DNA of 42,316 bases from an uncultured Clostridia bacterium. Its GTDB lineage: Bacteria; Bacillota; Clostridia; Christensenellales; UBA3700. The notes beneath the pieces were generated by a model. That model was not told where the DNA came from, ran no database searches, and saw only the letters and a list, made by a program, of their open reading frames with translations. Below are positions 6,601 through 22,272 of this stretch, piece after piece. Within the stretch, counting starts at the first letter, position 1, and every line of letters starts with the position of its first letter. The stretch spans positions 1 through 42,316 of the forward strand of contig CAMOQV010000001.1 in assembly GCA_946623205.1 (NCBI GenBank), given 5' to 3'. The translations under genes and the position numbers were made by a program.

Positions 6601-9600
6601 GTGAATGTATATTCTATTAACCCAATTTTGAATTCTATTTTACTAATTATTATTTGAGCTGAAGATATATCATCTTTAAATGTTATGTTATAGCAATATG
6701 TCTCTATATCACCATTTGCGTCCTTAATGTTAATATCAGATATATCAACATCATATGATCCAATATCTGTTTGTCCATATGGTGTTAAATCTAGATAATC
6801 GCCAGAAATCAAATTGCCTTCATATGACACTTTTGGATATTGCACTTCTCTTGTATAAGAAGAATCTAAATCTTCTATCGTAACTAATACGTCTATCTTT
6901 TCAATTGTTAATGTAGATAGGATATTATCAAACGAAATATCGTAATACGAAACAGCACCATCTGATTCATTAACGACTTCTATATCGCTAATATCGATAT
7001 TATATACACCTGGGTTAATCTTTGCATATGGTGCAAGATTCAAGCTATCACCATTTAAGCAACTTCCTGATGTAATGCTAATTTCCGGACGTTGATAATC
7101 TCTTGTATATGTAGTAGTTTTTGATGGTTCAATAGTAACCATTAAAGCTCTCTTTGTAATATTGAATGTTATAATTGCATCATCTAAATCTATAGAATTG
7201 CCATCCAAATCTACAAAATAGATTTCATAATAACTAGCATCAGAATCCACATTATCTTCATTATGAAGAATTGGATAATAATGTTCCTCTAAAACTGCTT
7301 CGCCTATTGTTGCAGTAAGTGTTTGCGTTTTAAAGTTGAAAACATAGCTTCCTATTTCAATAAAGCTTCTAATTGTCAAATAATCGTCAGGTAACAATAC
7401 TGAAGAATTTGTTTCTGCAGATACATATTGAGCGCCATCCCATAGGACTTCTTTAATATGTGGTGCATGAGATGTCTTTGTATATTCATAAGACTCATCT
7501 TGTATTATTTGTAAATATAAATCGATTTTCTTAATAGTTAATGTAACGCTATCTTTATTATCCTTATAAATTACATTGTAGCAATCTGTAACATCTTCTT
7601 GCGTTTCGCTATTTAGAATCTTTAAATCATAATTTGTAAAACCATAAATTCCAACTTCTGATCTTAAATAACTATCTTTATCTATATAATCATTTTCTAG
7701 TAACTTCGATTCCCCGCTTATTACTTCTTCTATTTCTGGTCGAACATATCCTCTATCGTATTTATAAATTTTATCTGTTAACGCAATAGTAATAACTCTT
7801 GGGACAATTGTTAATGTAACTGATGTCTTATCCTCATAGCAGTGTATTTGATAATGATGAGTTACGTCTTCTCCTGTCTCTAGATTATGGAATTTAATTT
7901 CATCTGCATAATGAGTATATGTGCCAATTTCGCTATGCCACCAACCAACATCGCTATATGCATCTCCTGTCAATAAATAGCCTTCCAAAAACTGATTGCC
8001 TTCCAAATCTACTGATTTCATAGTTGGCATATAATTAGCTCTTGAATACTCTACTTCTCTATCCTCTAAGCGCAAATATACATCTATTTTTCTAATTGTT
8101 AGATTTGCTATAACATCTTCACTATCTAAATAAGGTGTATCTAATTCATCAACATAAGATATCTTATAATAATCAACATTAATTAATTCTTCATCAACTC
8201 GTCTTTGAATTATATTAAAATCTTCCTCTTCATCATCTGGCATTAGAATCTTATTTTGTGTTAGGTTATAGTTATATTCACCAACTTCGATAAACTCTCT
8301 TGTAATGAAGACATCCCCATCTAATAAGCTTCCACTCAATAATTCAAATGTTGGATGATGTGCTTGTCTATCAAAAGCAACATTAACATCTGTTATCCTT
8401 ATTGTTAATTCAATAGGATTAATTGTTAATGTTACAATTTCTTCAGTATTTATAGTGTTATCTTCATTGATAAAACCTAAAATTTCGTAATACGTCTTGA
8501 TATTTTCTTCATTTTGATCGTATATCTTTAGATTGTTTAAATCAAAGGTATATGTATAATCATCTTTGTTTAATCTCTCATCTAATGGCTTTACGTGCTC
8601 TCTTGTAAAGAAGCCAAGATTGAATCTATCTTCACCAAGAAGACCAATATCGCCATTTTCAATTTGCACATACGAAATGTCATTAGTTAATTCATCTACA
8701 ACTTTCTTAACTATAATAATCTCTGGACGATATTGTTTTACACCTTCAAATGTAAATGTCTTATTTATAGTCTTTATATAGAATGCTCTCTTTATAATAT
8801 TCAATGTAGCTACATCTTTGCCTTCAACAAATCTTACATCGTAATAGCTAACTTCATCACCATTTGAATTTCTAATCTTTACGTTTTTAATGTCATATTC
8901 ATAACTACCAACTATGCTGTTTCCAAATTCAGATACATCAATATAATCACCCGCAAGCAACTTGCTCTCGCCATCTATATATTCAAATGCATTGATAGCA
9001 TAGTAGTTATCATCAAATATAACTGTTTTTTCTTCATTTGTTAGAGTAACAATTCTCTTTAAAATCTTTAAGCTTCCGAAATCTTCATCTACAATTGTGA
9101 AATATTTTTCTGAGTTATAATCTAAAACGGCTCTAACAACAACCTCAGATTCTGCCAATACCGGGTTGTAATCTATCATCTTTGCAAGAACTGGATAGAT
9201 AGTACCTGTTCTATTATTTTCCGTATCATATATGCCAGGCAAATCTAACTCTTCTGGCACATATGGTTCATATTCTCCCGTTAGTGCATTTAATCTTAAT
9301 AGATAATATGTTGGTTCATCCTCGCTATATAAAGCAGTGCCGTCATATTCTTTTTCTTTGCTTTGAGTTGTTACCTTTAATTTAACTTTTTCTACAACTA
9401 AATCGCCTAATACCAACTTTAATTTATAGTTAGTACTCTCTATGCCATTTTCATAATCATCTTCGCTTTCATATATCTTAATATCCAAATCGTTTGTTAG
9501 TGTCCCTGGATATGTAAGTGTAGGAATCGAAGATCCTTTACTAACTCGAATTAGCGCATCTTTATATAACGTTCCTTCTACGTGTTCAAATCCAGCCGTT

Positions 9601-10772
9601 AAAGGTAGCCCATCGAACGTTTTTTTGTTTGCTAATGTATTAACTGTAATTTCTGCCTTTTCAACCTTTAGTGTGCCAAATCTTGGTACTATTTCATAGT
9701 TTGCCAAGTTTGTATTATCATTTGGATACCATTGCACAGAGTTTTGAATAGTTGAAGCGTTTGTAATCTCTTTAAAATCGCCAAACGAGAATCCTTCGCC
9801 TTGTGGTAATAAAGTAGAATCGTAAATTACTGTTTTGTCGCTAAGAGGCGTACCATCATATGTTTTTGTTTTATCGTTAGTCTTTATCTCTAGTCTTATC
9901 TTAGCTACATTTACTCTTCCATAGTTATAATGCACATCATAATATTTGTTTGTAACGTCTTTGCCATCTTTGTTCAATATTTTCATTGGCATATTGTTTG
10001 TGTATATGCCAGCATTATAACCAAATGTCTTTGGCGTAATATCTATAGAATCTGAATAACAAAGATTACCTGAAGATATATCATATTGAGATAATTCAAA
10101 TGTTTGGCCATTATATGTAGTATTTATACTTTCAGTATCGATTGTAATTCTCTTTTTCGTGAAATCAACTGCTTTTGTTTCTAATATAATGTTATAAGCA
10201 TCAGTTACATCTAAGCCTTCTTTGTTTATAATCTTCAACTTGTCTATATCTGGAGTAACATTAAATGTGTTTTCGTCTACATCATCAAATATAAATGAAT
10301 CACACTCTATCTTATCTGCATAAGCTAAATCGCTCGTTAATCTTAATATAGTGCCATATTCTATTTCATTATTTACAATGCAAATTGTAATGTCTTTCTT
10401 TTTGATGACAACACTAACTGCCTTTCCGTGTTGCGTCGCACCAAAAGATCTTTCAGAAACGGTTCTTATTTCATATTCACCTGGAGTTTCTGGCAATCCA
10501 GCAGTCCATTGTGTATCATTCTTCTCTTTATATTCTGTTGTAGATTTACTAAAGATACTATTTGATTCATAATAAACTCTCTCACCATAAGTTAAATCTG
10601 TTTCCCCAACGACAGGATCAAGAATCATACCATTAATACCAACTAATGTTGAAACGACAATAAAGACAGCAATCAAGCAAGCTATAATTAAAATCTTATG
10701 CTTAATTATTGAATCTCTAATTGATGCTAACGTCTCTAAACGTTTTTTGTAGATATCGTACGTTACTTTCAT
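651..10772 (-). CDS. giant (3,373 aa) type-II membrane-anchored surface protein: MBG-like repeat array plus transglutaminase-like cysteine-protease core
   Basis: Uninterrupted ORF whose ATG overlaps the upstream stop (TGATG). N-terminal K/R-rich segment followed by a hydrophobic helix, ILIIACLIAVFIVVSTLVGING. About 26 tandem repeats of roughly 85-110 aa (pattern K-x-I-x-I, Y-D/N/T-G/R-x-x-H-x-P, LL-x-GD, G-x-Y, YY-x-I, TLTI). Acidic linker ADEKDMPEDPEED. TgpA-like module with GVCRHYASAA (Cys codon 1818-1820) and HAWVEVYVYGLGWIAVEVTG (His codon 1689-1691). Ser/Gly/Asn linker, then about 3 more repeats. Confidence 0.9.
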   Translation of the reverse strand: MKVTYDIYKKRLETLASIRDSIIKHKILIIACLIAVFIVVSTLVGINGMILDPVVGETDLTYGERVYYESNSIFSKSTTEYKEKNDTQWTAGLPETPGEYEIRTVSERSFGATQHGKAVSVVIKKKDITICIVNNEIEYGTILRLTSDLAYADKIECDSFIFDDVDENTFNVTPDIDKLKIINKEGLDVTDAYNIILETKAVDFTKKRITIDTESINTTYNGQTFELSQYDISSGNLCYSDSIDITPKTFGYNAGIYTNNMPMKILNKDGKDVTNKYYDVHYNYGRVNVAKIRLEIKTNDKTKTYDGTPLSDKTVIYDSTLLPQGEGFSFGDFKEITNASTIQNSVQWYPNDNTNLANYEIVPRFGTLKVEKAEITVNTLANKKTFDGLPLTAGFEHVEGTLYKDALIRVSKGSSIPTLTYPGTLTNDLDIKIYESEDDYENGIESTNYKLKLVLGDLVVEKVKLKVTTQSKEKEYDGTALYSEDEPTYYLLRLNALTGEYEPYVPEELDLPGIYDTENNRTGTIYPVLAKMIDYNPVLAESEVVVRAVLDYNSEKYFTIVDEDFGSLKILKRIVTLTNEEKTVIFDDNYYAINAFEYIDGESKLLAGDYIDVSEFGNSIVGSYEYDIKNVKIRNSNGDEVSYYDVRFVEGKDVATLNIIKRAFYIKTINKTFTFEGVKQYRPEIIIVKKVVDELTNDISYVQIENGDIGLLGEDRFNLGFFTREHVKPLDERLNKDDYTYTFDLNNLKIYDQNEENIKTYYEILGFINEDNTINTEEIVTLTINPIELTIRITDVNVAFDRQAHHPTFELLSGSLLDGDVFITREFIEVGEYNYNLTQNKILMPDDEEEDFNIIQRRVDEELINVDYYKISYVDELDTPYLDSEDVIANLTIRKIDVYLRLEDREVEYSRANYMPTMKSVDLEGNQFLEGYLLTGDAYSDVGWWHSEIGTYTHYADEIKFHNLETGEDVTHHYQIHCYEDKTSVTLTIVPRVITIALTDKIYKYDRGYVRPEIEEVISGESKLLENDYIDKDSYLRSEVGIYGFTNYDLKILNSETQEDVTDCYNVIYKDNKDSVTLTIKKIDLYLQIIQDESYEYTKTSHAPHIKEVLWDGAQYVSAETNSSVLLPDDYLTIRSFIEIGSYVFNFKTQTLTATIGEAVLEEHYYPILHNEDNVDSDASYYEIYFVDLDGNSIDLDDAIITFNITKRALMVTIEPSKTTTYTRDYQRPEISITSGSCLNGDSLNLAPYAKINPGVYNIDISDIEVVNESDGAVSYYDISFDNILSTLTIEKIDVLVTIEDLDSSYTREVQYPKVSYEGNLISGDYLDLTPYGQTDIGSYDVDISDINIKDANGDIETYCYNITFKDDISSAQIIISKIEFKIGLIEYTFTYDGHAHDAGVIPDYAALLSGDSYSTSDYKRTDVGTDTFDLNDKKVLNSAQEVVDYYEIKYYAITLDGNGMPVDAVPVTQGNIFVTITIVPIEITLMLDNYSTSFDRELHSPIIKEVYYDDVSGTYVDATEETTKILTGDIAYVPVFSAIGTYAYDLYTNKITMNVNGEETIEDYYPIAKYKNNVYTACTYYNISYVDKLNNTINVENAQVTLEITKIDIVISIDAIYTTPYNRAKQNPNIKEYSFESNLLDGDSIDITPYERTDIGEYAIDIAGITIVDANKQVVDYYQISFKDDNTQSAFEIEKRDIYIKLIDTQVSYDRNKHTPTIKEVVWDADLVQYVDAEESMLLTNDYLYLSPFERIEVGEYTFNPFEMQIKRMAAEDPTYYEIHYIDSNDNEFAQGMAYVELIIKKIDIYYQLTDTTIIYDGKDHYPSIQEVMKQTVDSVVSYVVSFNNTNLLSGDTLDKEPYKGKEIGTYHFAPLNAQIKMAASLEYATYYNIHYVDSDGVLFDEGIEGVTLFIVNREIYVKAVNGVYIYNRQPHSPTFSVVKKVNDSYEPIVGSDVGLMDGDHFNVDYFTRTTIKSIADGDYVYEFELSELKILNANNEEVTSNYTILGFVDGDNALKDGSNPMVNLTINPVPVYLHTEDNTVTYDGNEKFAEILFYPVDGYELLPGDEVINKGFIGVGTYVYDVQNNTITKTINGIETVEEYYPIVSYNNYGERIPADYYQVLPVGPNPVTLTINPIHIYISIANAEYTYDGLKHSPDIHEVIKEEDEYNNVSYRDPLQDETNLVFGDKLNLAPYTTANVKDVQNADYVYSYSMIDFDLFMKGYYNVHFVKDGIEVNYRNAQGTIIESDVPVVTLTINPRVLNVAWDEEAEHSVFEYDGKAHTPAIVFGGDHIAAGEAANAFIIDDALEQIIFTFSPTYSLSVKTPGDGYASMSNPVITYSDGTMRYTVTSNFIITYTNDESYVQVVPRKLVVAPKHIEVEYDGEVHTIDEYEFIEGSLVGGDELRVLEFIGEGTEIGEYTVEIGEYILDNADCYDVELRTQTLNIVARQIYIQISNIEYEYDAKEHTPNISEYIIDNTKLLGDDIINVAEFAKTNAGEYVINTSDIKVLTYDADLDEYKEANYYAISFVDLAGTIVEFSSINLIIHKKLIYIRPSNASLEYTGEMQTAKDIEEILVDGIVDGKLQKVSRFVDGHYMVVNSVTFGGGRLELGLSENETYIIDYDISVFDGSDGDEDETNDVDVSENYEYNIDTKGNIEIIKRKITIKTGSKYAVYSGTPLMYDHYIIETGSVLEGDQLAVEIYGRIVDIGSVPNKASAKVYGEHEEFYEPVNIIFGTLTIVADEKDMPEDPEEDNIQDWDENFDYQDNNGADKESVLCMVTSDVAGSIYLKTEAYANYTGSTWNAEDSSIANRTFTYNEKTYSYNALTGLALGDLGVSKNNVTIKSFIDGALVPYYTAMEYMDPQELHTLEHDGFGYEIEYRDSTVGILTQLSQTTQDLRIIEQDYRMSNLFRSNYLTVPDGELKQYLISIINSQGFTISDSAVIQKVAQYIQKSAKYNLAYDPALDEESDFVYAFLTKYKEGVCRHYASAATLLYRTLGIPARLVVGLKGEVTEPNTKTSITKKQAHAWVEVYVYGLGWIAVEVTGSDSNSSGGASGSGSNNENSQDSDISSTVNVEDYFYDKEMYIHPVFTLGSFDPLNPDAELAPKQQVESYEFTNESGVYVNKGLFENLISKGYTYECEILGGQVGVGISRSKIMKFKLFDSYGNDVTNRFIIHMVDGQVEMTDKEIIVINVKNYIKTYTGQEISPKTNAWTIVSQPSNVVIEWTMQSIRGPIVNAGVIKAADLNVNEICVYSSSDVFRTTNIANNYRIVVNGNAVVVKPKYIAISTNSISQLITNGSIHQEVFLSQGTLVSGHRIACTFVTPQQIVGVQENKISELHIYDENGNDVTGSYSIKVTYGQIKLSLDPNDI
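2558..10400 (-). repeat. protein-level tandem array of about 26 diverged MBG-like (YDG ... NY/YY ... TLTI) Ig-like repeats inside the giant CDS
   Basis: Repeat boundaries were read from the translation (recurring TLTI/LTIN-P/K-x-I-x-I junctions). The copies are diverged at the protein level, and I saw no long identical DNA stretches. Confidence 0.7.
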
Positions 10773-12991
10773 CAGTACAATTCAAGCTCCCCTGATATTG
10801 TGGTTATTATGAAGTTCTTTGTTATATCTACTAATACAGTATTATCATTTTGATCTTTCTTACTATAGTAAATCTTTACTTCTTCTATATCGTTATCTGC
10901 TATGCCTTGCTCCGTTAGGATTGTTGGCATAGTTACTTTAACTACTAAATCTTCAATATATCCTTGATATTCATATGTGAAATCATCTTCATCACATTGC
11001 AATCTTGCACCTGGTGTATATGCAGCTCTTTCGCTTCCTGCAGTTACTGTAATTAAGACAGGAGTGATCTTTACTTCGCCAGGAATTGCTTCTATTTCAT
11101 AATCATCCGTAGCATCGACACCACCTCTTAAAATCTCAACTTTGAATGGATTTTCATACACACCTATATCTCTAAATGTGTTTTGGAACGTTAATCTCAA
11201 TTCGTCTGTTTCTGCTAAATGTCCTGCTTCAATAGAATATGCTTCAACTGTTCTATCTGTATTGTTATATGTAAAGTTTGCGTTCTTGCCTCTGATTCTC
11301 AAAAGATATTTATAAACATGCAAGGTGCCTGCACGTGTATAATCATAGCCATATTCATCACTTACATCTTCACCGTTTTCATCTACAATTACTGGCTCAA
11401 CATAGTTTGGCGTTTTACCAACTTCTGTCCTTGAAGATATGAAGTTATATGACACGATTGTGTGATTTGGTTCCAAATTGCCTGTATAGTAAACTTCTGT
11501 GCCGGCGCCTGTTAATGGTTGACCATTATATTCTCTTGAAACATCTTCAGTTGTTAAATATAAAATTGTTCTAACTTGCACAAATAATCCTTGCTCATAA
11601 GAAAAATCAAAATCATTTGTTACTTCATCGCCATCCGCGTTATAGATATGGAATTCTTCTATATTTGTTAAACCAGCATTACCAAGTTTTGTAAATCCTG
11701 ATGGATATTCAAAATCTATAATGCTACCACTCTTATCTGCATTTCCATAAAAACCAGCTGTATAATAGAACCCATCATATTTTTTTATTAAATCTATTAA
11801 ATCGCCTTCTAAGAAGTCGCCTTCTTTACGTGAATCATGTATAACCCCATCTTCGTCTGCGCCTAATGGATAATACCTACCATCAACGCCATCTTGAGGA
11901 ACTTGGCTTATCTTTGGTTTAATAACAGATTGATTATCCTCGTTTGAAACAGTTCTTCCTGTTGGATCTGTTGGAACCCAACCAACACCATCTACATATA
12001 TCTCTACCCACGCGTGCGCGTCTCTATTAGTTACTTCAACTTCTTCATCTTTTATAGCCTTTACGCTAAAGCCATCTACTCTTCTTGCTGGAATGCCTGC
12101 AGATCTATACATTAATACTGCGGCGCTCGCAAAGTGTTGGCAGATACCTTTTTTGTATTTAGACATAAAAGCAACTACGACATCGCTTTCGTTGTTCATA
12201 GCTCTATCGAATTCCAAATCATAAGATGCAGCATTTGAAACATAATTTGAAATGTTAGAATAAATATTCTTTGTATCTTTTGACCAGCCTTTATCTCTCA
12301 ATATATCTAAAAAATATTGTTTTGTTGTTTGAGGAACTGCTGTGTAATGTTCATATACGAAAGTTCTATATGCTAATTCTTCTTGCGAATATTGTGTTCT
12401 TGGCGATGATTTAACCATAGATGACAATGTATCTGCATTATATTTATTAGCGCCAAAATAAATTGCTGTATATGGGCTACTTACATCACCGCTATTTTCT
12501 ATATCACTTGTTTGAAGTTTAACACTGCTTCCCATTGGAGATGTGTAATATGGGAGTACATAGTTGTTGTAATTAGGATCAATCTTCATGCTATATATCA
12601 ATGCACCTTGCTCATCACAATATAACGCAGTTAAATAATCACATGAGATTGAATTATTTATTAATTCTTGGTATTCAACCGGATTTTGCCATGCATTATT
12701 TTCCATATCTCCATATGCAAAGGCTTTTAATAATACTGTTCCATTTGAATTTGCTGTAACTCTATAACAAACTCTTGTTTCACTATCCGAATCTGTTCCC
12801 AAATCCGAAGAGAATTGTCCATTTCTATTTAAAGCGTTAGCTAAAGCCTCAGAAAGGCCTGTCTTCATAACGCCATCTTCAAAGTTTACGAAAAAGCGCA
12901 CAACAAACAAAAGCAAAGCTGCAATAGTAAATATTGCTAACATGCCTACAAGATTCAATCCATGATTACTTTGCTTCTTCTCTTGTGCCAT
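10772..12991 (-). CDS. membrane-anchored transglutaminase-like protein (739 aa) with C-terminal MBG-like repeats; short paralogue of the giant protein
   Basis: N-terminal TM LVGMLAIFTIAALLLFVV. Canonical Transglut_core triad context: KKGICQHFASAA (Cys 12140-12142) and DAHAWVEIYVDGVGWVPTDPTG (His 12014-12016, DPT Asp). The pre-core region aligns with the giant protein (VLPYYTSP vs LVPYYTAM; AFAYGDMENNAW vs EAYANYTGSTW). The C-terminus has 3-4 YNG/YxI-type repeats. Confidence 0.88.
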   Translation of the reverse strand: MAQEKKQSNHGLNLVGMLAIFTIAALLLFVVRFFVNFEDGVMKTGLSEALANALNRNGQFSSDLGTDSDSETRVCYRVTANSNGTVLLKAFAYGDMENNAWQNPVEYQELINNSISCDYLTALYCDEQGALIYSMKIDPNYNNYVLPYYTSPMGSSVKLQTSDIENSGDVSSPYTAIYFGANKYNADTLSSMVKSSPRTQYSQEELAYRTFVYEHYTAVPQTTKQYFLDILRDKGWSKDTKNIYSNISNYVSNAASYDLEFDRAMNNESDVVVAFMSKYKKGICQHFASAAVLMYRSAGIPARRVDGFSVKAIKDEEVEVTNRDAHAWVEIYVDGVGWVPTDPTGRTVSNEDNQSVIKPKISQVPQDGVDGRYYPLGADEDGVIHDSRKEGDFLEGDLIDLIKKYDGFYYTAGFYGNADKSGSIIDFEYPSGFTKLGNAGLTNIEEFHIYNADGDEVTNDFDFSYEQGLFVQVRTILYLTTEDVSREYNGQPLTGAGTEVYYTGNLEPNHTIVSYNFISSRTEVGKTPNYVEPVIVDENGEDVSDEYGYDYTRAGTLHVYKYLLRIRGKNANFTYNNTDRTVEAYSIEAGHLAETDELRLTFQNTFRDIGVYENPFKVEILRGGVDATDDYEIEAIPGEVKITPVLITVTAGSERAAYTPGARLQCDEDDFTYEYQGYIEDLVVKVTMPTILTEQGIADNDIEEVKIYYSKKDQNDNTVLVDITKNFIITTISGELELY

Positions 12992-12992
12992 C

Positions 12993-14438
12993 CTAAATGT
13001 TATTTACAATGTTATGAATGTATTGTTTACATCTTGGCATTGCTTCCTCTCCAAATAGTTCATTTAGCTTGTCTACTAACCCATCTGCTCCATTTTTAAC
13101 GTAGATTGGGTTCTTCATCTCAAGCTTTCTCAATATCTTCTTAGATAAGATATCGTCTAACGCATCAAGTTCTTCTCCGCCACATCCAATGTAAATCGGT
13201 ACATACTTATTTATTTGCATCATAATTCTGTTACCAAATGTTACTTGGAAATGCTTCGTTAAGTAATTGTCTAATTCCTTTAACTTCTCTTTGTTTCTCT
13301 CTGTTAATGCATTCTCTTGTTGTGCATTTAATATCAATCGATCAAAATCTTTTGCACTTAAATGTAGATTAGAACTATTTCTTCCTCTAAATGGTTCACA
13401 CTTGTTATCCAAGTTTAGAATCATAGCTCTATCGTATACCTTATCTGAAATAGCAAATGTACTATCATCATTGTTTGCTGTTCCAATAAACCACATGTTT
13501 GTTGGTAATTGTATTTGTCCATCTTTCAAACTTGCTGGGTCTGTTGCCCACTTGTCTGAAACTACTTCCATATATCTTTCATCTGCTCTTGGTAATTCCA
13601 ATAAAGATAAGAATTCTGCAAAGTAATACTCAACTCTCGCAATATTCATTTCATCTAGCACTGTTATATAGATGTCTTCTGAATAATTCGCTTCATACAT
13701 CTTCTTTAATAGAGCTGTTTCATTAAAGTGCTTTGTGAATTCATTGTAATATCCAATAAGGTCTGTTCTTTCCTTCCACATAGGTTGAATTGGAATAACT
13801 GTTGATGGATTCTCTACAAATCTACCAAATGCATATGCAAGTGATGTCTTACCTGTACCAGACATACCTTGCAATATTAAGATGTGAGATACTCCAAGTC
13901 CAGCTATGAATGACCTAATATCTTCTGCTCTGTAATATAACCCTAATTCATTTGCTGAATAGTTTCTAAAATCATCACAGAACATCTCTAATGTAATATT
14001 GTTGATGTAATCATCCTTTGAATATGTCTCTCTCTTCTTATCTATTTGCTTCAATATGCTGAATCTAGATATGTTCTTGTTGTTCTTATCACTAGCTTTG
14101 CTTGAGCCTATACTTCCTGTTCCTTCAACTAATAATTCGTTTGGCAACGATAGTTGATATGAACCATGATGTCTTTGATATCTATACAAGGCTCTTGCAT
14201 TTTCTCTAATTCTTTTGAAGATAACGATAACAGTCACTAAAAGTACAATTGGAGTACCAATTAAAAGAGCGATTAAATATACGAAATCTATTACGTTTTG
14301 TTCTTCAATATATTTTTTGAACTCTTCAATATTAGCAACTATTACCAATTCCAAGATGAAAGCAACAATCACAACGATTATTGCGGCTACAATCATAACA
14401 TTAGTTAGAGTTATTTTCTTATTGTTTGAACTTTTCAT
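12993..14438 (-). CDS. membrane-anchored McrB-type AAA+ NTPase (481 aa, two N-terminal TM helices)
   Basis: Walker A GMSGTGKTS (13842-13868). Walker B plus following helix VLDEMNIARVEYYFAEFLSLLE (compare McrB IIDEINRANLSKVFGE..LLE). LPTNMWFIGTANNDDST (compare McrB NVYIIGLMNTADRS). Two hydrophobic helices lie at the N-terminus, followed by a basic stretch, KRIRENARALYRYQRHH. Confidence 0.8.
   Translation of the reverse strand: MKSSNNKKITLTNVMIVAAIIVVIVAFILELVIVANIEEFKKYIEEQNVIDFVYLIALLIGTPIVLLVTVIVIFKRIRENARALYRYQRHHGSYQLSLPNELLVEGTGSIGSSKASDKNNKNISRFSILKQIDKKRETYSKDDYINNITLEMFCDDFRNYSANELGLYYRAEDIRSFIAGLGVSHILILQGMSGTGKTSLAYAFGRFVENPSTVIPIQPMWKERTDLIGYYNEFTKHFNETALLKKMYEANYSEDIYITVLDEMNIARVEYYFAEFLSLLELPRADERYMEVVSDKWATDPASLKDGQIQLPTNMWFIGTANNDDSTFAISDKVYDRAMILNLDNKCEPFRGRNSSNLHLSAKDFDRLILNAQQENALTERNKEKLKELDNYLTKHFQVTFGNRIMMQINKYVPIYIGCGGEELDALDDILSKKILRKLEMKNPIYVKNGADGLVDKLNELFGEEAMPRCKQYIHNIVNNI
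12994..14110. repeat. direct repeat copy A (1,117 bp), apparently 100% identical to 15982-17098
   Basis: Base-by-base reading agrees. The encoded C-terminal ~370 aa are identical, as are the antisense shadow ORFs (13267-13626 = 16255-16614; 13499-13726 = 16487-16714). The offset is a constant 2,988 bp. Confidence 0.9.
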
Positions 14439-15981
14439 CTTCTACCTTCTTAAACAATATTTCTCTTTGTAGTCTCTTCTTGGTCTTCTTCCATGCCATT
14501 TTGTAATACTCGCCGATTACTTTGTATTCCTTTTCGATTAATTTAAACTTGTCCTCATCTGTATAGTCTTGATAATCTACTTCCAATCCAAGTTGATTTC
14601 TAAATGCATTATTTTGTGTAATTGCACTATCAAATTTCTCTCTTTGAAGCTCCATTGAATGTTGCATGTTTGCTAATTCTTTTTCAAGATTACCTTTTGC
14701 TTGAATTAAATTGCTTCTTTCGTTGTTCACTTGGCCTAGTTCTTGTTCAAAAACCGCTTGTCTTTGAGCTATTTTGTTTTCATAAGCTATTGCCATGCTT
14801 GCTTTTTCTTCTTGCAAGTTCGCAATATCGCCCTTTAGTGCTTTAATTGTTCCTTTTTGTTTTTCAATAACGCTATTTGCACTTTGAAGTTCTAGTAATT
14901 GAGATTCTAGATATTGGATTCTTTCATTTTGTATTAAAATGTATTCATCTATTTCCTTTCCGCTAAGCTTTTGCTTGCCTCTTAATTCTTGAATTCTCTC
15001 TTTAACTTCTTCAATTCTTTCAGCTTCTTCGATCTTCAATTGTTTTTCCATTTCTTCTTGAAGAGATTCGCCAAGTTCCATACTATGCATTTGCATTAAG
15101 AACAATAGCAACAAAACTGTGTTATTGAAATCGTCTTCAGCTTCTCTATCTAATTGTTTTTCAACAGCTTCTCTTGTAATAGAATATCCTGGTGCTGAAT
15201 ATGTAGATATATATTCATATAAGGCAAGAGCATATTTGAAGTTTGTTTCCATTTTTAAAACGTTAGTTTTTGTAATAGGTGGCTTAATCATTGGCACCTT
15301 GCTTACTTCTACCATAAGCGGAGTAGATAGCAATTTCAAAATAGCGTTTAAAACGTCTTCAATTCTTTGTACAACTTTAGCGTTAGCACTATCTTTAGAC
15401 AATGACATATTCTCATCTTCAATATTGATTGAATATGTAATATTTCTTTGTTTTGTTTTATATTTAGAGCCAATCTCTAAAACTGTGTAATATTTTCCTG
15501 AATATTCTGTAATCTTGTTATATCTTTCAGTTGTGAAGTCTCTTAAATAAGTTAATAGCAAATACAAGAATCTATTCTCATAAACAGCATAATCACTTAG
15601 CTTTTCTACGGTGTAAATCTTTTCTGGTCTTACTTCATCTGTTTCTTCGTCAATCTCTTTAATTAAAGATGCGTGCTTTGCAAGATGGCTAATAGATTCT
15701 TTTGATACACTCTTTGTCTTTTCAATTAAAACAACTTCTCCGTTTGTTCTAATGAATTGTCTTTCTTGCGAAATTGCCTTTTCTATATACTTTAGATTGT
15801 TTTCAATTTCGCTTATCCAATCTTCTGTTACTTCACACTTAATTCTTTCTATTGAAAGCTTAGATATCTTACTTGAACCAAGCGAGTTGATTTGACGTAA
15901 AAAGTTTTGGATACCCTTATCCTTTAGCGCAAACTTTTTATATTCAACAAACGCTCTATAGTAATAATCTATCGTTCTCAT
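14419..15981 (-). CDS. McrC-position partner protein: DUF2357-like N-terminal region plus long coiled coil, no nuclease domain (520 aa)
   Basis: Sandwiched between the two McrB-like genes and translationally coupled to both (TAATG at 15981; 20-nt overlap at 14419-14438). The YAVYENRFLYLLLTYL motif (about 15568-15582) resembles the ENRF(V/L)K motif of DUF2357/McrC-like proteins. Residues ~300-470 are heptad-rich and E/K/Q/L-rich (EEMEKQLKIEEAERIEEVKERIQELRGKQ...). No PD-(D/E)xK signature is visible. Confidence 0.6.
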   Translation of the reverse strand: MRTIDYYYRAFVEYKKFALKDKGIQNFLRQINSLGSSKISKLSIERIKCEVTEDWISEIENNLKYIEKAISQERQFIRTNGEVVLIEKTKSVSKESISHLAKHASLIKEIDEETDEVRPEKIYTVEKLSDYAVYENRFLYLLLTYLRDFTTERYNKITEYSGKYYTVLEIGSKYKTKQRNITYSINIEDENMSLSKDSANAKVVQRIEDVLNAILKLLSTPLMVEVSKVPMIKPPITKTNVLKMETNFKYALALYEYISTYSAPGYSITREAVEKQLDREAEDDFNNTVLLLLFLMQMHSMELGESLQEEMEKQLKIEEAERIEEVKERIQELRGKQKLSGKEIDEYILIQNERIQYLESQLLELQSANSVIEKQKGTIKALKGDIANLQEEKASMAIAYENKIAQRQAVFEQELGQVNNERSNLIQAKGNLEKELANMQHSMELQREKFDSAITQNNAFRNQLGLEVDYQDYTDEDKFKLIEKEYKVIGEYYKMAWKKTKKRLQREILFKKVEDEKFKQ

Positions 15982-17318
15982 TAAATGTTATTTACAATGT
16001 TATGAATGTATTGTTTACATCTTGGCATTGCTTCCTCTCCAAATAGTTCATTTAGCTTGTCTACTAACCCATCTGCTCCATTTTTAACGTAGATTGGGTT
16101 CTTCATCTCAAGCTTTCTCAATATCTTCTTAGATAAGATATCGTCTAACGCATCAAGTTCTTCTCCGCCACATCCAATGTAAATCGGTACATACTTATTT
16201 ATTTGCATCATAATTCTGTTACCAAATGTTACTTGGAAATGCTTCGTTAAGTAATTGTCTAATTCCTTTAACTTCTCTTTGTTTCTCTCTGTTAATGCAT
16301 TCTCTTGTTGTGCATTTAATATCAATCGATCAAAATCTTTTGCACTTAAATGTAGATTAGAACTATTTCTTCCTCTAAATGGTTCACACTTGTTATCCAA
16401 GTTTAGAATCATAGCTCTATCGTATACCTTATCTGAAATAGCAAATGTACTATCATCATTGTTTGCTGTTCCAATAAACCACATGTTTGTTGGTAATTGT
16501 ATTTGTCCATCTTTCAAACTTGCTGGGTCTGTTGCCCACTTGTCTGAAACTACTTCCATATATCTTTCATCTGCTCTTGGTAATTCCAATAAAGATAAGA
16601 ATTCTGCAAAGTAATACTCAACTCTCGCAATATTCATTTCATCTAGCACTGTTATATAGATGTCTTCTGAATAATTCGCTTCATACATCTTCTTTAATAG
16701 AGCTGTTTCATTAAAGTGCTTTGTGAATTCATTGTAATATCCAATAAGGTCTGTTCTTTCCTTCCACATAGGTTGAATTGGAATAACTGTTGATGGATTC
16801 TCTACAAATCTACCAAATGCATATGCAAGTGATGTCTTACCTGTACCAGACATACCTTGCAATATTAAGATGTGAGATACTCCAAGTCCAGCTATGAATG
16901 ACCTAATATCTTCTGCTCTGTAATATAACCCTAATTCATTTGCTGAATAGTTTCTAAAATCATCACAGAACATCTCTAATGTAATATTGTTGATGTAATC
17001 ATCCTTTGAATATGTCTCTCTCTTCTTATCTATTTGCTTCAATATGCTGAATCTAGATATGTTCTTGTTGTTCTTATCACTAGCTTTGCTTGAGCCTACA
17101 TTGCCAACGCCCTTAACCTTAATAGCCTTGTCTGGCAATTGAAGTTCAACTGTTTGTGTTGTTTCTCTAAAATCTTTTGCTTGCTTTGCTTGGATGATAA
17201 GCAAAATAACCATTATCGCAATGAAAGACACAATCAACGTAGAATAAATAATAATCGCATACGTTGATGTGAAAATATCTATGATTTCACTGGACAATAA
17301 AAATAACGTATTAAGCAT
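15981..17318 (-). CDS. membrane-anchored McrB-type AAA+ NTPase (445 aa, N-terminal TM anchor)
   Basis: Same AAA+ module as 12993-14438 (Walker A 16830-16856, Walker B DE 16638-16643), with a different N-terminus: IIIYSTLIVSFIAIMVILLIIQAKQAK. GGAGGA sits 6 nt upstream of the ATG. Confidence 0.8.
   Translation of the reverse strand: MLNTLFLLSSEIIDIFTSTYAIIIYSTLIVSFIAIMVILLIIQAKQAKDFRETTQTVELQLPDKAIKVKGVGNVGSSKASDKNNKNISRFSILKQIDKKRETYSKDDYINNITLEMFCDDFRNYSANELGLYYRAEDIRSFIAGLGVSHILILQGMSGTGKTSLAYAFGRFVENPSTVIPIQPMWKERTDLIGYYNEFTKHFNETALLKKMYEANYSEDIYITVLDEMNIARVEYYFAEFLSLLELPRADERYMEVVSDKWATDPASLKDGQIQLPTNMWFIGTANNDDSTFAISDKVYDRAMILNLDNKCEPFRGRNSSNLHLSAKDFDRLILNAQQENALTERNKEKLKELDNYLTKHFQVTFGNRIMMQINKYVPIYIGCGGEELDALDDILSKKILRKLEMKNPIYVKNGADGLVDKLNELFGEEAMPRCKQYIHNIVNNI
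15982..17098. repeat. direct repeat copy B (1,117 bp), apparently 100% identical to 12994-14110
   Basis: See copy A. Identity stops abruptly at 17098/17099 (copy A 14110/14111) and at the stop codons (TAA here, TAG in copy A). Confidence 0.9.
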
Positions 17319-18786
17319 CTATATCCTCCAAAAAATCATCAATATCTTCAATTTCGTCATCATCTTCATATTTTGAAGCTCTTATTAAATCGTCATCGCT
17401 AGCTAATTTTGCTTCATCATCTTCGTAATCTATCTCGTCTTCTTGCTTCTTTGCGAATCTATTTGAATAATACTCTTCATCTTGATCATTATTTGAAGAA
17501 CTTGCATTTGCATTTTCTTCATACATATAATCCATCAAAACTCTAGATAACTCTTCATTCTTTGTTCCGATTAAATGAGAAATCTTCTTTGTCATTTCCT
17601 TATCGTTTGCGCTACTAATAATTGGTGCAACTAAAGGCAAAATTCTTTCTATTAAGATAGTGTTTCTAAACTCTTTTTCTGGAATGCCAAATTGGCCAAG
17701 TAATGATACAAATCTTTCGATTTCAACACATTCTTTATTAGACAATTTAACTTCCTTTTGAATTGCCATAATACTATCAATGAACTTCCAATCATCTTCG
17801 CTCATCATGAACGAGCCCTTTTGCGAATCAATTCTATACAAATAGTCGTATGTAACATCACATGAACCTACAGACTCTACACGATCATTTGTTGGTCTTG
17901 GATGTATTTCAATGATTGTAGCTGCTTTTCTCAATTCTTTTGGATACCACTTAATTTCATCAAATGTTTCAATTGCGCAGAATACAATGTGAGATGGAAT
18001 TCTCAAATTCTTATTCTTGTATTCAAGTTCTACGTCGCTATATCTAACATTCAATAGTGGTAGAGTTGCAGCCAAAATATCTTGTTTTTCTGGACCAAGA
18101 TTTACAAGTTCTATTAATCTTAGTTCTTCAAGACCTAAATCTTTATCCAATGCTCTAACTAATGATTCTGTATTAAATACGATATCCATATCAAATTGCT
18201 TTGATTTAATACCAATACTTGCTAATTGATCAATAATAATTCCACCAAGCTCAATATCGTCTGTATTTAATACAACAAACTTTCCAGATAAAACTGCACT
18301 AATTACTCTTATTGCTTCTTTAGAATCTAGAGTAACTCCTCTTTCTTGTAAATTTTCTAGGAATATATCTAGAACATCTGAATATGCTACATAATTCTTA
18401 ACAATCTTTTGATTAACTCTTTCTCTCTTTGAAATATTAAATGCTGAATCAAAGAAATATTCGATTGCTTCATTTTTATTCTTTTGAGTATAACGAGATG
18501 TTAACATTTCAATCTGAGTTATCTTGCTATATGTTGGATCCTTTAATTTGTTTCTCATATTTACTGCGGATAATCCCAAAATTGCAAATGCTATAAATCC
18601 AGCAACCATCATCATGATGCATGCTGACAACCAAACTACATCAATATCACTTGTTGGAGAAAAACTTCTAACAAGTGGAACTGTCAAAGCAGCAAGGCCT
18701 GCAGCCATCATTACATATAAAGCTCTTTGCCAGCCGCTATCATACATTTTTAATGGAGACTTTTCATATGAATCATATCTTCTCAT
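17311..18786 (-). CDS. membrane-anchored degenerate paralogue of the McrB-type module with poly-acidic C-terminal tail (491 aa)
   Basis: Two N-terminal TM helices. The cytoplasmic part aligns by eye with the neighbouring ATPases but lacks the catalytic motifs: LNTDDIELGG replaces LQGMSGTGKTS, LIELVNLGPEKQDILAATLPLLN replaces VLDEMNIARVEYYFAEFLSLLE, and IPSHIVFCAIETFDE replaces LPTNMWFIGTANNDD. About 60 C-terminal residues are D/E-rich. AGGAGG RBS. Confidence 0.6.
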   Translation of the reverse strand: MRRYDSYEKSPLKMYDSGWQRALYVMMAAGLAALTVPLVRSFSPTSDIDVVWLSACIMMMVAGFIAFAILGLSAVNMRNKLKDPTYSKITQIEMLTSRYTQKNKNEAIEYFFDSAFNISKRERVNQKIVKNYVAYSDVLDIFLENLQERGVTLDSKEAIRVISAVLSGKFVVLNTDDIELGGIIIDQLASIGIKSKQFDMDIVFNTESLVRALDKDLGLEELRLIELVNLGPEKQDILAATLPLLNVRYSDVELEYKNKNLRIPSHIVFCAIETFDEIKWYPKELRKAATIIEIHPRPTNDRVESVGSCDVTYDYLYRIDSQKGSFMMSEDDWKFIDSIMAIQKEVKLSNKECVEIERFVSLLGQFGIPEKEFRNTILIERILPLVAPIISSANDKEMTKKISHLIGTKNEELSRVLMDYMYEENANASSSNNDQDEEYYSNRFAKKQEDEIDYEDDEAKLASDDDLIRASKYEDDDEIEDIDDFLEDIDA

Positions 18787-18796
18787 AATCCACCTC

Positions 18797-19813
18797 CTAC
18801 ACCAAATCTGAATATGGAATCACTTGACCTTCATAGTAGAAAGTAATTTGATCTACATTTTCAAATGCTCCACTTTCGATTTTTGGTTTTGATTTATACA
18901 ATCTAACTGTACGTACTTGGTAACATCCAGAGAACGCGCTGGATTTAACTGTTTCGGCACCATACAATTGGACTGTTTTTAAACCTTGACAGAAGCTAAC
19001 TGTATTTGCATTTATTGTCTTTGTTTCTAATATTGCCTCAACTAGCGAGCTACATGAAACAATGGCACTGCTGTTAATCTTCTTTGCCTCAATATCTACG
19101 GTATATAAAGATGGGCAAGAAACGATTGCTCCAGCTTCAACTTCATCAAGATGATATACACTAATACTCTTAACATTTGATTGGTTAAAAGCTCCCTTTT
19201 TAATTCCACTCAAATTAAATGTTCTATCTTGCGTAAACGCAATAGACGTCGTGTCTGGATTTACTTTTTGTATGTAAATCTTTCCAACGCTTTCTTCTAC
19301 TAACGTAACTCCTGGATACAAATCATTTGTACCTACGTTGTTACCAAGCCAAATTTGCATTTGTTGATACATTGGAAGATACATTGCAATAAATACTCCT
19401 GTAAGTAAAACCAAAAATGCTGTCAATGTTGCACTAAATGCTGTGAATTTTTTGGTTGCATCGGCAACTTTTGCTCTTGTCTTCTTTACTGGAGCTGCTT
19501 GTTTAATTTCTATAATTTCGATTGCTTCACAATTTGGACGCAATGGCATTTGCTTTGCCTTACCAAAATATTCGCCTGGCTTTGCGTATTGTTTTGTGAA
19601 TAATATATTATCTGTTTCTAGGACTTTACCTTTTGCGTCAACTTGATTGATTTTGCAAGTAATATCTTTAATTAACTCTCTTGAATTGTTCTTAAATTCA
19701 ATAATTGCGTATCTTTGTTTTTCTTCGATAAAGATGACATATCTTGTTGCGATAAGACTACTCTTTAGTTTGCTACTTAGGGTGACTGCTTTATAAATAA
19801 CTTTAGTTGCCAT
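18797..19813 (-). CDS. single-pass membrane protein with extracellular BspA-type leucine-rich repeats (LRR_5-like)
   Basis: Central TM FTAFSATLTAFLVLLTGVFIAMYL. The C-terminal ~150 aa show units of ~20-23 aa with (A/S)(F/I)x(S/G)Cxx(L/V) (GAFNQSNVKSI, AIVSCPSLYTV, AIVSCSSLVEA, VSFCQGLKTV, SAFSGCYQVRTV, GAFENVDQI). GGGGGT RBS. Confidence 0.65.
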   Translation of the reverse strand: MATKVIYKAVTLSSKLKSSLIATRYVIFIEEKQRYAIIEFKNNSRELIKDITCKINQVDAKGKVLETDNILFTKQYAKPGEYFGKAKQMPLRPNCEAIEIIEIKQAAPVKKTRAKVADATKKFTAFSATLTAFLVLLTGVFIAMYLPMYQQMQIWLGNNVGTNDLYPGVTLVEESVGKIYIQKVNPDTTSIAFTQDRTFNLSGIKKGAFNQSNVKSISVYHLDEVEAGAIVSCPSLYTVDIEAKKINSSAIVSCSSLVEAILETKTINANTVSFCQGLKTVQLYGAETVKSSAFSGCYQVRTVRLYKSKPKIESGAFENVDQITFYYEGQVIPYSDLV

Positions 19814-20555
19814 TTGTCTTTACCCCCTTTTGCTTAAATTGAGGTCTGAAAATCGCTCTAGTTATAAATAATATAATTGGGACCGTTGCTATATATGCAA
19901 TAATTGGAACTACGATGGCTGCCACACTAATTGTTTGCTCATAATTTTTACTCCACATAGACATTAATGGAGAAACATCTCCAGCAAATCCTGCTAAGAA
20001 AAATGCTATAACAGCAAATGCTGCTGGAATAATAGCAATAGCTGCAGTAAATGCATATTTAAGCATATCTGTCGTTCTAATGTTTTGCTTATTTACTTTT
20101 TCGTTGTTAGCTTTAATAACGTTTATTTGAACAGTTTTTGTCCTTTCAGATAAACGAACCAAATCTAACTCTCCACCATCAATTGTTTGCTGATCAATAG
20201 TGATAGTCTTGAATGGAACATATTCGTCGTCATTCTTTTCGTCATACATTGTTACTTCATAACGAATAGATTGTAAATCTTGAGCAAGAATTGGACGTAA
20301 GTAACAATTTAACCCTTTGTACACAATAACCGCCTTGTTAATATATTGTGCAGATTTTGATCCCGTAACTTGTACGATAAGCGTTCTTGTTTCTAGACTA
20401 TCTTCGTCCTTAACAATTTTGTCTGGACCTTTGAAGACGCGTCTATTAATCATGAACACTTTTGGGAAAACGAACATGTTTAGCGCAGCCAATATAATAA
20501 ATGCTATTACAAAGACTGAACTGGCAATGTCTAAATCGATAACACCAAAAAGCAT
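19803..20555 (-). CDS. small 3-TM membrane protein with ~130-aa cytoplasmic domain (250 aa); first gene of the operon
   Basis: Hydrophobic helices at aa ~10-30 and two near the C-terminus. Basic residues flank the cytoplasmic faces. GAGGGA lies upstream of the ATG. No recognisable family. Confidence 0.6.
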   Translation of the reverse strand: MLFGVIDLDIASSVFVIAFIILAALNMFVFPKVFMINRRVFKGPDKIVKDEDSLETRTLIVQVTGSKSAQYINKAVIVYKGLNCYLRPILAQDLQSIRYEVTMYDEKNDDEYVPFKTITIDQQTIDGGELDLVRLSERTKTVQINVIKANNEKVNKQNIRTTDMLKYAFTAAIAIIPAAFAVIAFFLAGFAGDVSPLMSMWSKNYEQTISVAAIVVPIIAYIATVPIILFITRAIFRPQFKQKGVKTNGN

Positions 20556-20697: not shown

Positions 20698-21393
20698 TTA
20701 TAAAGTTTTTACGATATCTTCGAAACTTATTTCATTAAATGGTTCTTTGTTATTTTCGTCCCTAACTATATTTCCGGTTAGAAAAAACTTAAGATTTAGA
20801 TCTCTTGCTACTTTTCCATCTTCTTTTTCCGAATTACCAAAATACACAACTTCATCAGCTTTTAGATTGAATTTTTCTAGCACTTCTTTAATGAAATTCT
20901 TATTTGGCTTAGCAAAATGAGACTCTTCATATGATGTAATATAATCGAAAGATTTTGGATCTATTCCAGCAAATCTAATTCTCGCTTCCATAGCATTTTT
21001 TGGAAAGACTGGGTTTGCAACAACAATGACCTTGCCTACTCTTTTTTTTATCTCGTTAATTATTTGTTGTGCGCCCTCATATGCTGGCTCGCAAAAGGCT
21101 TTTGTGTTTTCAAATTCTGTAGAATAAAATACTCCAAATTCTTTGCAAATTTCATCTATGTTTTTATCTGGATAACATGCTTTAAATGTCTTCCAAAAAG
21201 CTTCCATACACGTTGTCTTTCCATCATTTTTTCTCATAGCATCAGTGCCAGCCCAAACAGCTTTTACAAAACTGTCTTTTTCGAATCCAAATGGTGCCAT
21301 ATGCTTATATAAATAACCGAAATATCCTCTCAAAAAGTTGTCTTCATTCATTGGCAATAATGTGCCATCTAAATCAAATAATACTGCCTTCAT
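20698..21393 (-). CDS. HAD-superfamily hydrolase
   Basis: The N-terminal motif I, KAVLFDLDGTLL, is diagnostic. The 231-aa length is typical. Confidence 0.8.
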   Translation of the reverse strand: MKAVLFDLDGTLLPMNEDNFLRGYFGYLYKHMAPFGFEKDSFVKAVWAGTDAMRKNDGKTTCMEAFWKTFKACYPDKNIDEICKEFGVFYSTEFENTKAFCEPAYEGAQQIINEIKKRVGKVIVVANPVFPKNAMEARIRFAGIDPKSFDYITSYEESHFAKPNKNFIKEVLEKFNLKADEVVYFGNSEKEDGKVARDLNLKFFLTGNIVRDENNKEPFNEISFEDIVKTL

Positions 21394-21549: not shown

Positions 21550-22272
21550 TTATTCTGCATCAAAAACTTTTGCTTCTTGATCTGTGATTTCACCTTCGAT
21601 AATTTCACCATCTTCTTCTTGTGGTTCATTGTCTTTGATTAATTCTAAATAGAAGTTAGCTTTTGTCATTTCATAATATGGTCTTACCCAAAGTGTGCCA
21701 ACGAATAAACATAAGAAACCAACGATGTACCATCCGATGAAGCTTAAGTCTAATACAAATAAATCCCACTTATGTCCTTTTGTTAATTCCTTACTTCTAT
21801 TTAAGCAATAACTCCAATCCTTATTTGGTTGGTCTTGTTGAACATAGATTGCCATAGAATATGCATAAGATTTTATGATACCTGGAATTATAAGCAACAA
21901 TGTCCATAAGAAAACGAATATTGATGTCATAATTCGAAGAATAATTGCATCGCCTAAGCATTCTTTAAAACCAACAAATAAATTATTTAGATTGGCTTTT
22001 TCATTCTTTCTTGCCGAAGTTACTGCGACTCTAACTGCACCATACTTCAATGGTCCCGTAACGATTAAAGCAGCTACGCTTAAAATTGTGCTAAAAGTAA
22101 TTCTAAAGTAACTAATACCAGATTTAAAATCATATGGAGTGGATCCAGATACGATACCAAGTATTAATTCTAAAATAAGGAATACTAATAACATATTCAA
22201 CCAACGATCGCCAAATAATTTGCGACCTAATTGGTCTTTTGCTCTTTCTTTTAATTCTTGTCTAGTTGCCAT
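21550..22272 (-). CDS. DUF975-family integral membrane protein
   Basis: The N-terminus RQELKERAKDQLGRKLFGDRW followed by multiple TM helices matches my recollection of DUF975. The C-terminal tail is acidic. Confidence 0.55.
   Translation of the reverse strand: MATRQELKERAKDQLGRKLFGDRWLNMLLVFLILELILGIVSGSTPYDFKSGISYFRITFSTILSVAALIVTGPLKYGAVRVAVTSARKNEKANLNNLFVGFKECLGDAIILRIMTSIFVFLWTLLLIIPGIIKSYAYSMAIYVQQDQPNKDWSYCLNRSKELTKGHKWDLFVLDLSFIGWYIVGFLCLFVGTLWVRPYYEMTKANFYLELIKDNEPQEEDGEIIEGEITDQEAKVFDAE

Follow-up and report, generated by a model that had tools for sequence, protein, structure and literature searches.

A candidate nuclease-free, McrBC-derived membrane NTPase in a conserved envelope gene cassette of gut Clostridia

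McrBC serves as the textbook example of a type IV restriction enzyme driven by GTP. A putative derivative of it is encoded in the stretch of DNA analyzed here, 42,316 nt of contig CAMOQV010000001.1 from an uncultured Clostridia bacterium (hereafter the window, meaning the whole stretch), within a cassette of eight overlapping or closely packed genes on the minus strand (651-20555, as seen in the list of open reading frames, ORFs). Four of these genes are at issue: A (15981-17318) and B (12993-14438), which encode McrB-like NTPases, C (14419-15981), which lies between them and encodes a McrC-like partner, and P (17311-18786), located upstream of A. An earlier note on this DNA had described A and B as McrB-type NTPases on membrane anchors; its gene set was incomplete, as it overlooked the DUF2357 gene that separates A from B and the dead paralogue upstream, and it did not notice that the two modules are identical.

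The closest described systems belong to the NxD branch of McrB GTPases (Bell et al., 2024; PMC11090510). In this branch the motif is reported as strictly conserved, with Glu or another Asp as the usual next residue, the N-x-D-[D/E] signature being McrB-specific, and DUF2357 is equated with the N-terminal domain of McrC, which plugs the McrB ring (PMC11090510). A large clade of NxD GTPases is fused to an FtsB-like transmembrane (TM) and coiled-coil domain, assigned by HHpred, and was named CoCoPALM; the McrB homologue and its McrC counterpart usually each carry a coiled coil, and an association with genes of the signal peptidase family (pilus assembly) was reported, details being deferred to a later paper (PMC11090510). 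That later paper was not found in our literature search, in which only the CoCoNuT paper (PMC11090510) was relevant to PDC-M26, McrB with transglutaminase, DUF2357 or CoCoPALM. CoCoNuTs, for their part, always have a HEPN or other nuclease nearby (PMC11090510).

With McrBC of E. coli and Thermococcus gammatolerans (PDB 6hz4, 6ut6, 6ut3) the window shares an alignable AAA+ module and an adjacent partner gene with DUF2357. It differs in that its modules carry TM anchors and no DNA-binding N-terminal domain, in its signature (N-x-D-[D/E], where McrB has N-x-x-D-R), in a partner that lacks the PD-(D/E)xK nuclease and gives an insignificant hhalign comparison with E. coli McrC, and in its chromosomal setting among envelope genes and not in a restriction locus. 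With CnuB and CnuC of the CoCoNuTs it has the NxD GTPase branch in common; moreover, relatives of the window module of 700-870 aa carry long soluble N-termini, one of which matches the coiled-coil protein LmuB, and CoCoNuT McrC homologues likewise often lack an active nuclease. In contrast to the CoCoNuTs, no HEPN or nuclease domain was detected in the window cassette, and its GTPases carry TM helices whereas that of the CoCoNuTs is a soluble protein bearing a coiled coil.

McrB-type modules on two different membrane anchors

The two ORFs of the earlier note, of 445 aa (A) and 481 aa (B), are present on the minus strand. Both were matched by Pfam AAA_5 (E 2e-7 for A and 2.4e-7 for B; 31 bits against a cut-off of 22). 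In a phmmer comparison of B with PDB sequences, McrB (6hz4) was the sole significant match (E 8e-4), followed by ClpX at E 0.67, and a search of all PDB sequences with a profile built from 52 family members recovered McrB alone (E 0.002), the rest scoring E 0.2 or above and MoxR, RavA and CbbQ chains being absent up to E 10. The family profile was aligned by hhalign with E. coli McrB over 153 columns that extend from Walker A into the sensor region (95.2% probability, E 2.7e-8), versus 3.4% over 36 columns, the P-loop only, with E. coli RavA. All four motifs on which the McrB assignment had been based were found opposite the corresponding motifs of E. coli McrB in both HMMER and hhalign alignments: GMSGTGKT opposite GPPGVGKT, VIPIQPMWKERTDLIGYY opposite VNMVQFHQSYSYEDFIQGY, VLDEMNIARVEYYFAEFLSLLE opposite IIDEINRANLSKVFGEVMMLME and NMWFIGTANNDDS opposite NVYIIGLMNTADRS; Walker B VLDEMN is aligned to McrB IIDEIN. 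At the level of sequence profiles, the modules of A and B are thus supported as McrB-type and not RavA/MoxR-type, in agreement with the earlier reading.

The catalytic elements of the A/B module (Walker A, Walker B, the sensor Asn and the N-x-D-[D/E] signature) are intact. Walker A, at 16833-16856 in A and with an identical motif at 13845-13868 in B, is invariant among the 52 homologues, as are V224, L225, D226, E227 and N229 of the Walker B motif (residues 224-229 of A; 16632-16649 as calculated from residue numbers, with the B copy at 13644-13661). The sensor-1/signature element reads NNDD in both proteins (16452-16463 in A, 13464-13475 in B) and is likewise invariant among the 52 close homologues. 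In a wider sample, which comprised 150 representatives of clusters at 50% identity, the approximately 130 motif matches almost all read N-x-D-[D/E]-S, with Asp conserved at position 3 and either Asp or Glu at position 4. The NxxD-like element proposed before is therefore present as a signature, in the variant form N-x-D-[D/E]-S and not as canonical NxxD. Since this form agrees with the published description of NxD, the family fits into the branch that also holds CoCoNuT and CoCoPALM, a placement drawn from the motif and the relatives, our own tree having been built without the data of Bell et al. (2024).

An AlphaFold2 (AF2) model of A showed an AAA+ fold with a mean predicted local distance difference test (pLDDT) value of 73. 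When the ATPase model was compared with the PDB by Foldseek, RavA (E 1.3e-5), McrB 6hz4 (3e-5), MCM (4e-5) and dynein (1.8e-4) were retrieved with low template-modelling scores of 0.25-0.42. The structural check suggested earlier thus does not discriminate between the clades, RavA ranking marginally ahead of McrB; as Foldseek identifies AAA+ and does not separate McrB, RavA, MCM and dynein, the profile comparisons were relied on.

The PADLOC model PDC-M26A matched A (E 8e-44) and B, at E about 1e-43 each, the match being confined to the GTPase part of this 724-position model; no other component was matched in the PADLOC scan, and an NCBIfam scan of the cassette proteins gave nothing above cut-off. 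The module is abundant. At least 8000 homologue clusters (90% identity) were collected by a word-index search, all of them significant, and 743 homologues at E < 1e-30 were found among 50%-identity representatives.

Where E. coli McrB has its DNA-binding domain, hydropathy revealed one strong hydrophobic segment in A (residues 19-43, TYAIIIYSTLIVSFIAIMVILLIIQ; 17190-17264) and two in B (residues 13-35, 14334-14402, and residues 52-74, 14217-14285), as had been noted before, and segments of this kind are present in 119 of 120 close homologues. Topology was assigned from hydropathy and a K/R charge heuristic, not by DeepTMHMM. In the one-TM forms (approximately 440 aa, n = 88) the mean number of K+R was 0.75 before the helix and 2.50 after it; in the two-TM forms (approximately 466 aa, n = 33) it was 3.45 in the N-terminal flank, 1.27 in the poorly charged loop of about 21 residues and 2.70 in the C-terminal flank. 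From this pattern the NTPase of both forms is predicted to be cytoplasmic, with A oriented N-out/C-in and B, anchored by a hairpin, N-in/C-in. Both patterns argue against a cleaved signal peptide at the N-terminus, and the one-TM forms, which lack a basic n-region, do not resemble such peptides.

Between anchor and module the linker of A and B is predicted to be disordered, not coiled coil (AF2 model). In the wider clade, the same module is found behind one or two TM helices, about four TM helices, or a soluble region of 350-450 aa, in one representative of which a coiled-coil protein was matched. The forms with about four N-terminal TM helices make up a large sub-clade (representatives P0154-P0266) with proteins of 560-700 aa.

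Identical modules, a McrC-like partner and a dead paralogue

The two modules, which had been described as similar and are indeed both McrB-type, are in fact identical: positions 15982-17098 (A) and 12994-14110 (B) form a perfect direct repeat of 1117 nt with 100% identity. The repeat spans from just past the anchors to the stop codon, the final base of which (15981) lies outside. Ten loci carry both genes (the window, L001, L004, L005, L008, L010, L012, L017, L019 and L020), and in all ten the last approximately 1080 nt of A and B share 92-100% DNA identity, with a constant boundary that falls shortly after the TM anchors, about 1080-1110 nt before the stop. Orthologous proteins, in contrast, share 83-84% identity in L001 and L004 and 54-58% in distant loci. 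In a neighbour-joining tree, A grouped with B of its own genome in ten of ten cases. As A and B are homogenised in every one of these loci while orthologues diverge, the modules are under concerted evolution, which from the sequence pattern is attributed to repeated gene conversion limited to the catalytic module, the anchors remaining distinct. Some lineages (L018, L021, L022) have kept a single ATPase.

In one further contig (L002, 1488-4938; ENA ERZ27297835 k141_395179, MEGAHIT-style) a one-TM ATPase gene directly abuts the transglutaminase (TGase) gene, without C and B. This join could be a deletion by recombination between the 1.1-kb repeats or a mis-join.

The gene between A and B, which adjoins the ATPase genes in all loci, encodes a protein of 520 aa composed of an N-terminal DUF2357 domain, a coiled coil of about 170 aa and a basic tail; it is the sole cassette component that is not a predicted membrane protein. 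With the coiled coil trimmed, C was matched by Pfam DUF2357 with 27.6 bits (cut-off 23.3, E 2e-6). The same model matched 34 of 45 C relatives, with a best E of 5.9e-9 and 25-40 bits for orthologues, and homologues of C already carry the PF09823 annotation and corresponding NCBI names. The matching core comprises residues 57-181 (15439-15813; Pfam and alignment) and contains the most conserved motif of C, ERQFIRxNGEVVxIEKxK. Its ERQFIRxNGEV segment opens a stretch (residues 77-128) of low pLDDT in the AF2 monomer model.

Downstream of this core, the coiled-coil region (residues ~300-470; 14572-15084, from the alignment and PDB profile matches) differs in length between species and matched only apolipoprotein- and tropomyosin-type chains in the PDB profile search. 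It is followed by a conserved C-terminal tail of 50 aa (14422-14571) with the consensus EWKKxKKRIRREVL, in which W497 and K501 are invariant in the alignment. Neither a PD-(D/E)xK nuclease nor any other nuclease family was found in C, where coiled coil and tail come after DUF2357. The tail of C forms a strongly basic helix (WKKTKKRLQREIL), and the tail of P (17311-17480) is a run of Asp and Glu; these opposite charges may point to a tail-to-tail contact or a membrane-binding helix.

P itself (491 aa) consists of a TM hairpin (hydrophobic segments 21-40 and 47-78), a dead McrB-like module and the acidic C-terminal tail. When the P family (A4) was compared with the ATPase family (A1) by hhalign, they aligned over 309 columns (99.7%, E 3e-26); the P family has neither a P-loop nor N-x-D. 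By its profile, P is a membrane-anchored McrB-like paralogue that is predicted to be catalytically dead. In distant loci (e.g. L005, 7211-10534) the P-type dead module sits behind a GH3 and Fn3-like region and a TM hairpin. That the GH3 region of these P paralogues of approximately 1100 aa is an ectodomain was considered and rejected: a signal peptide is lacking, and with the two TM helices arranged as a hairpin, both GH3 and the dead module are predicted to be cytoplasmic.

The cassette and its relation to CoCoPALM

In the direction of transcription the cassette encodes a small TM protein, a BspA-type leucine-rich repeat (LRR) protein, P, A, C, B, a TGase-fold protein and a TGase-fold giant. 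This order recurs in about twenty loci from metagenome-assembled genomes (MAGs) of Christensenellales-like and other gut Clostridia. The first gene (19803-20555) encodes a three-TM protein of 250 aa (ORF and hydropathy) with homologues in L001 and L004 only, the corresponding position in distant loci being held by ORFs of 230-270 aa. It is followed by a membrane protein of 338 aa (18797-19813; TM 123-150) with a BspA-type LRR_5 ectodomain (Pfam, E 9.5e-11); in other loci this position is taken by LRR_5 proteins of 860-1800 aa. Only 2 nt from the stop of B begins the gene of an N-terminally anchored TGase-fold protein of 739 aa (10772-12991; Transglut_core E 8e-22, TM 9-38), which is conserved in position in every locus extending that far.

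The final gene, conserved as such, encodes an N-terminally anchored giant of 3373 aa (651-10772; TM 20-56). Its only Pfam match is Transglut_core at residues 2943-3044 (E 1.7e-20), and a paralogous segment is shared with the 739-aa neighbour: residues 2771-3234 of the giant correspond to residues 68-521 there, at 25% identity (E 3e-35). The approximately 2900 aa before the match are unannotated; they resemble many diverged beta-rich repeats, and self-BLAST of the protein gave no internal repeats at E 1e-5. Across species the surface proteins of the cassette vary greatly in length. A Pfam search detected no nuclease domain in the eight cassette proteins, neither HEPN nor any other toxin domain was detected there, and Pfam and NCBIfam gave no VWA/DUF58 gene among its proteins.

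For comparison, a locus from a Bacilli MAG (L024, 5573-13467) fits the published description of CoCoPALM. Its GTPase consists of a TM helix, a short coiled coil and the NxD GTPase, matches the NCBIfam McrB model NF008457 (E 1e-6), shares 48% identity with the window module and is sister to the window family in the tree; the DUF2357 partner has 362 aa (E 4.5e-10). A SipW-type signal peptidase (12186-12752, 83 bits) and a degenerate second copy (5573-6100) bracket four small N-terminally hydrophobic proteins, a 361-aa unknown protein, the GTPase and the DUF2357 protein.

Like CoCoPALM, the window combines an N-x-D-[D/E] GTPase with an N-terminal TM segment, a DUF2357 partner with a coiled coil and without a nuclease, and exported or surface proteins encoded nearby. 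It differs in several respects. Pfam and NCBIfam scans of the cassette proteins revealed no signal-peptidase-family gene, and the SipW-type peptidases of L024 and their neighbouring small proteins had no tblastn match in the window or in 28 other loci. The coiled coil is found on the McrC homologue, none being predicted on the McrB homologues, whose linkers are disordered instead, and Pfam, used here in place of HHpred, gave no DivIC/FtsB match in A or B although TM helices are present. Furthermore, the GTPase gene of the window is duplicated on two anchors, homogenised by gene conversion and accompanied by a dead paralogue, and its neighbours are giant TGase-fold proteins, a BspA-LRR protein and, in relatives, a GH3 fusion. 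Because homologues of the peptidases and small proteins are missing and the linkers are disordered, the window was not filed under CoCoPALM. It is a sister variant with the same motor pair and other anchors, in which the TGase and LRR proteins replace the peptidase and pilin-like set. McrB homologues with TM anchors are thus already published, and the architecture of the window is not.

Further upstream on the same strand lie genes for an EEP-family protein (Exo_endo_phos; 22419-23579), a DUF975 membrane protein (21550-22272) and a HAD hydrolase (20698-21393), which are syntenic only in L001 and L004 (the HAD gene in L004 only) and seemingly unrelated to the cassette. The EEP-family nuclease/phosphatase gene, 2 kb upstream of the cassette, was considered as a missing effector and rejected, since its synteny does not extend beyond the two closest relatives. 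Also outside the cassette, a 1225-aa ORF is located on the minus strand at 27933-31610.

A possible membrane machine and the alternatives

We lean, with some reserve, towards the reading that this is a conserved eight-gene envelope cassette whose core is a nuclease-free NTPase machine derived from McrBC and seated on the cytoplasmic face of the membrane. Judged by gene neighbourhood, it would probably be a GTP-driven membrane machine tied to the assembly of surface proteins. By analogy with McrBC of E. coli and T. gammatolerans, the modules of A and B would form hexameric rings that their N-termini tether to the membrane, and the conserved DUF2357 segment of C (ERQFIRxNGEV) would insert into the ring pore and stimulate GTP hydrolysis through the Asp of N-x-D. 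The coiled coil may dimerise C and thereby bridge two rings. Homogenisation of A and B could then keep the subunits interchangeable within one ring, or keep two rings equivalent for a symmetric C dimer. The output would be a nucleotide-driven conformational or assembly step and not DNA cleavage, acting on the co-encoded surface proteins, namely the two giant TGase-fold proteins and the BspA-type LRR protein. Such an output is suggested by the gene neighbourhood and by the parallel with CoCoPALM, where the same GTPase/DUF2357 pair is found beside SipW-type signal peptidases and small secreted proteins. A role other than DNA restriction, as the earlier note had proposed from the membrane tethering, is plausible, since a coiled coil takes the place of the nuclease in C and the conserved cassette yielded no nuclease domain; the tethering as such was already known from CoCoPALM (PMC11090510).

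A more detailed version of this reading is offered tentatively: a nuclease-free McrBC motor may have been exapted as a heteromeric membrane machine that assembles, anchors or remodels giant TGase-cross-linked surface fibres by GTP hydrolysis. Its parts would be the two live paralogues A and B, kept identical, the one dead anchored paralogue and the coiled-coil McrC-like activator, and homogenisation would have been selected by the need of A and B to assemble together into the same ring.

Several points weigh against an envelope machine of McrBC descent. McrBC supplies the analogy for ring formation, for pore insertion and for GTP preference, and the ATPases, C and the surface proteins are linked through gene neighbourhood. 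The McrC link comes solely from the Pfam DUF2357 hidden Markov model: a profile of C searched against the PDB returned coiled-coil chains only and no McrC, Foldseek of the AF2 model of the N-terminal domain of C (pLDDT 80) gave no PDB match below E 0.05, and hhalign of the C family with E. coli McrC gave 0.2%. For the ATPase model, Foldseek puts RavA slightly above McrB. Defence is the predicted role of every other known member of the NxD branch, and the module matches PDC-M26A. Finally, the unannotated part of the giant could conceal an effector.

Alternatively, the locus could serve in phage defence or another conflict, as a system of the CoCoNuT/CoCoPALM type. A McrBC-like sensor stationed at the membrane would then act where phages attack, with the variable giant surface proteins as sensors, decoys or effectors. 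Membership of the module in the NxD branch and the strong, if partial, match to the PADLOC candidate speak for this reading, as do soluble relatives with long coiled-coil N-termini like that of CnuB and the wide differences in length of the surface proteins among species. We nevertheless regard it as unlikely, though still a serious rival, given a conserved cassette that shows no nuclease, HEPN or toxin domain and no further PADLOC component; moreover, a gene order kept across several Clostridia families at 54-58% identity resembles a vertical chromosomal operon, not a mobile island. MoxR-DUF58-TGase operons, too, include TGase-fold proteins, so that the ATPases could be MoxR/RavA-class chaperones that mature the TGase-fold proteins, with a merely superficial resemblance to McrB. 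Membership of the same AAA+ superclade, the position beside TGase-fold membrane proteins and the top Foldseek rank of RavA (E 1.3e-5, TM-score of the query 0.42) are compatible with this. It appears very improbable in view of the hhalign and PDB profile comparisons given above, which reject RavA, of a partner that is DUF2357 and not VWA/DUF58, and of the N-x-D-[D/E] signature, which is McrB-specific (PMC11090510).

One might also suspect that the duplicated module reflects a faulty assembly or a trivial duplication of very recent date, in an organism with one ATPase gene, because 1117 nt at 100% identity resemble a collapsed or mis-joined repeat and contig L002 passes from A straight to the TGase gene. 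We give this next to no credence. The order A-C-B with distinct one-TM and two-TM N-termini is found on ten contigs of separate assemblies, whose names point to SPAdes-, MEGAHIT- and IDBA-type assemblers, the A/B identity varies from 92 to 100% among them with a fixed boundary, and both anchor forms are abundant among homologues.

Returning to the proposed McrBC-derived envelope machine, the only published hint of a McrBC motor working off nucleic acids consists of the few sentences that Bell et al. (2024; PMC11090510) devote to CoCoPALM. The locus described here is a concrete, abundant and conserved example, in which the motor and a McrC-like activator are kept, the nuclease is lost and giant TGase-fold surface proteins are the neighbours. 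Gene conversion limited to the catalytic module makes it an unusually clean case of concerted evolution, with a testable prediction on subunit mixing in AAA+ rings. A cassette of about 20 kb is a large investment for gut genomes, which are probably small, and an envelope role, if true, would offer a route to its function. It would then be the first McrBC derivative in cell-envelope biogenesis. Taken together, the motor of a restriction enzyme seems to have been reused at the cell envelope of these Clostridia.

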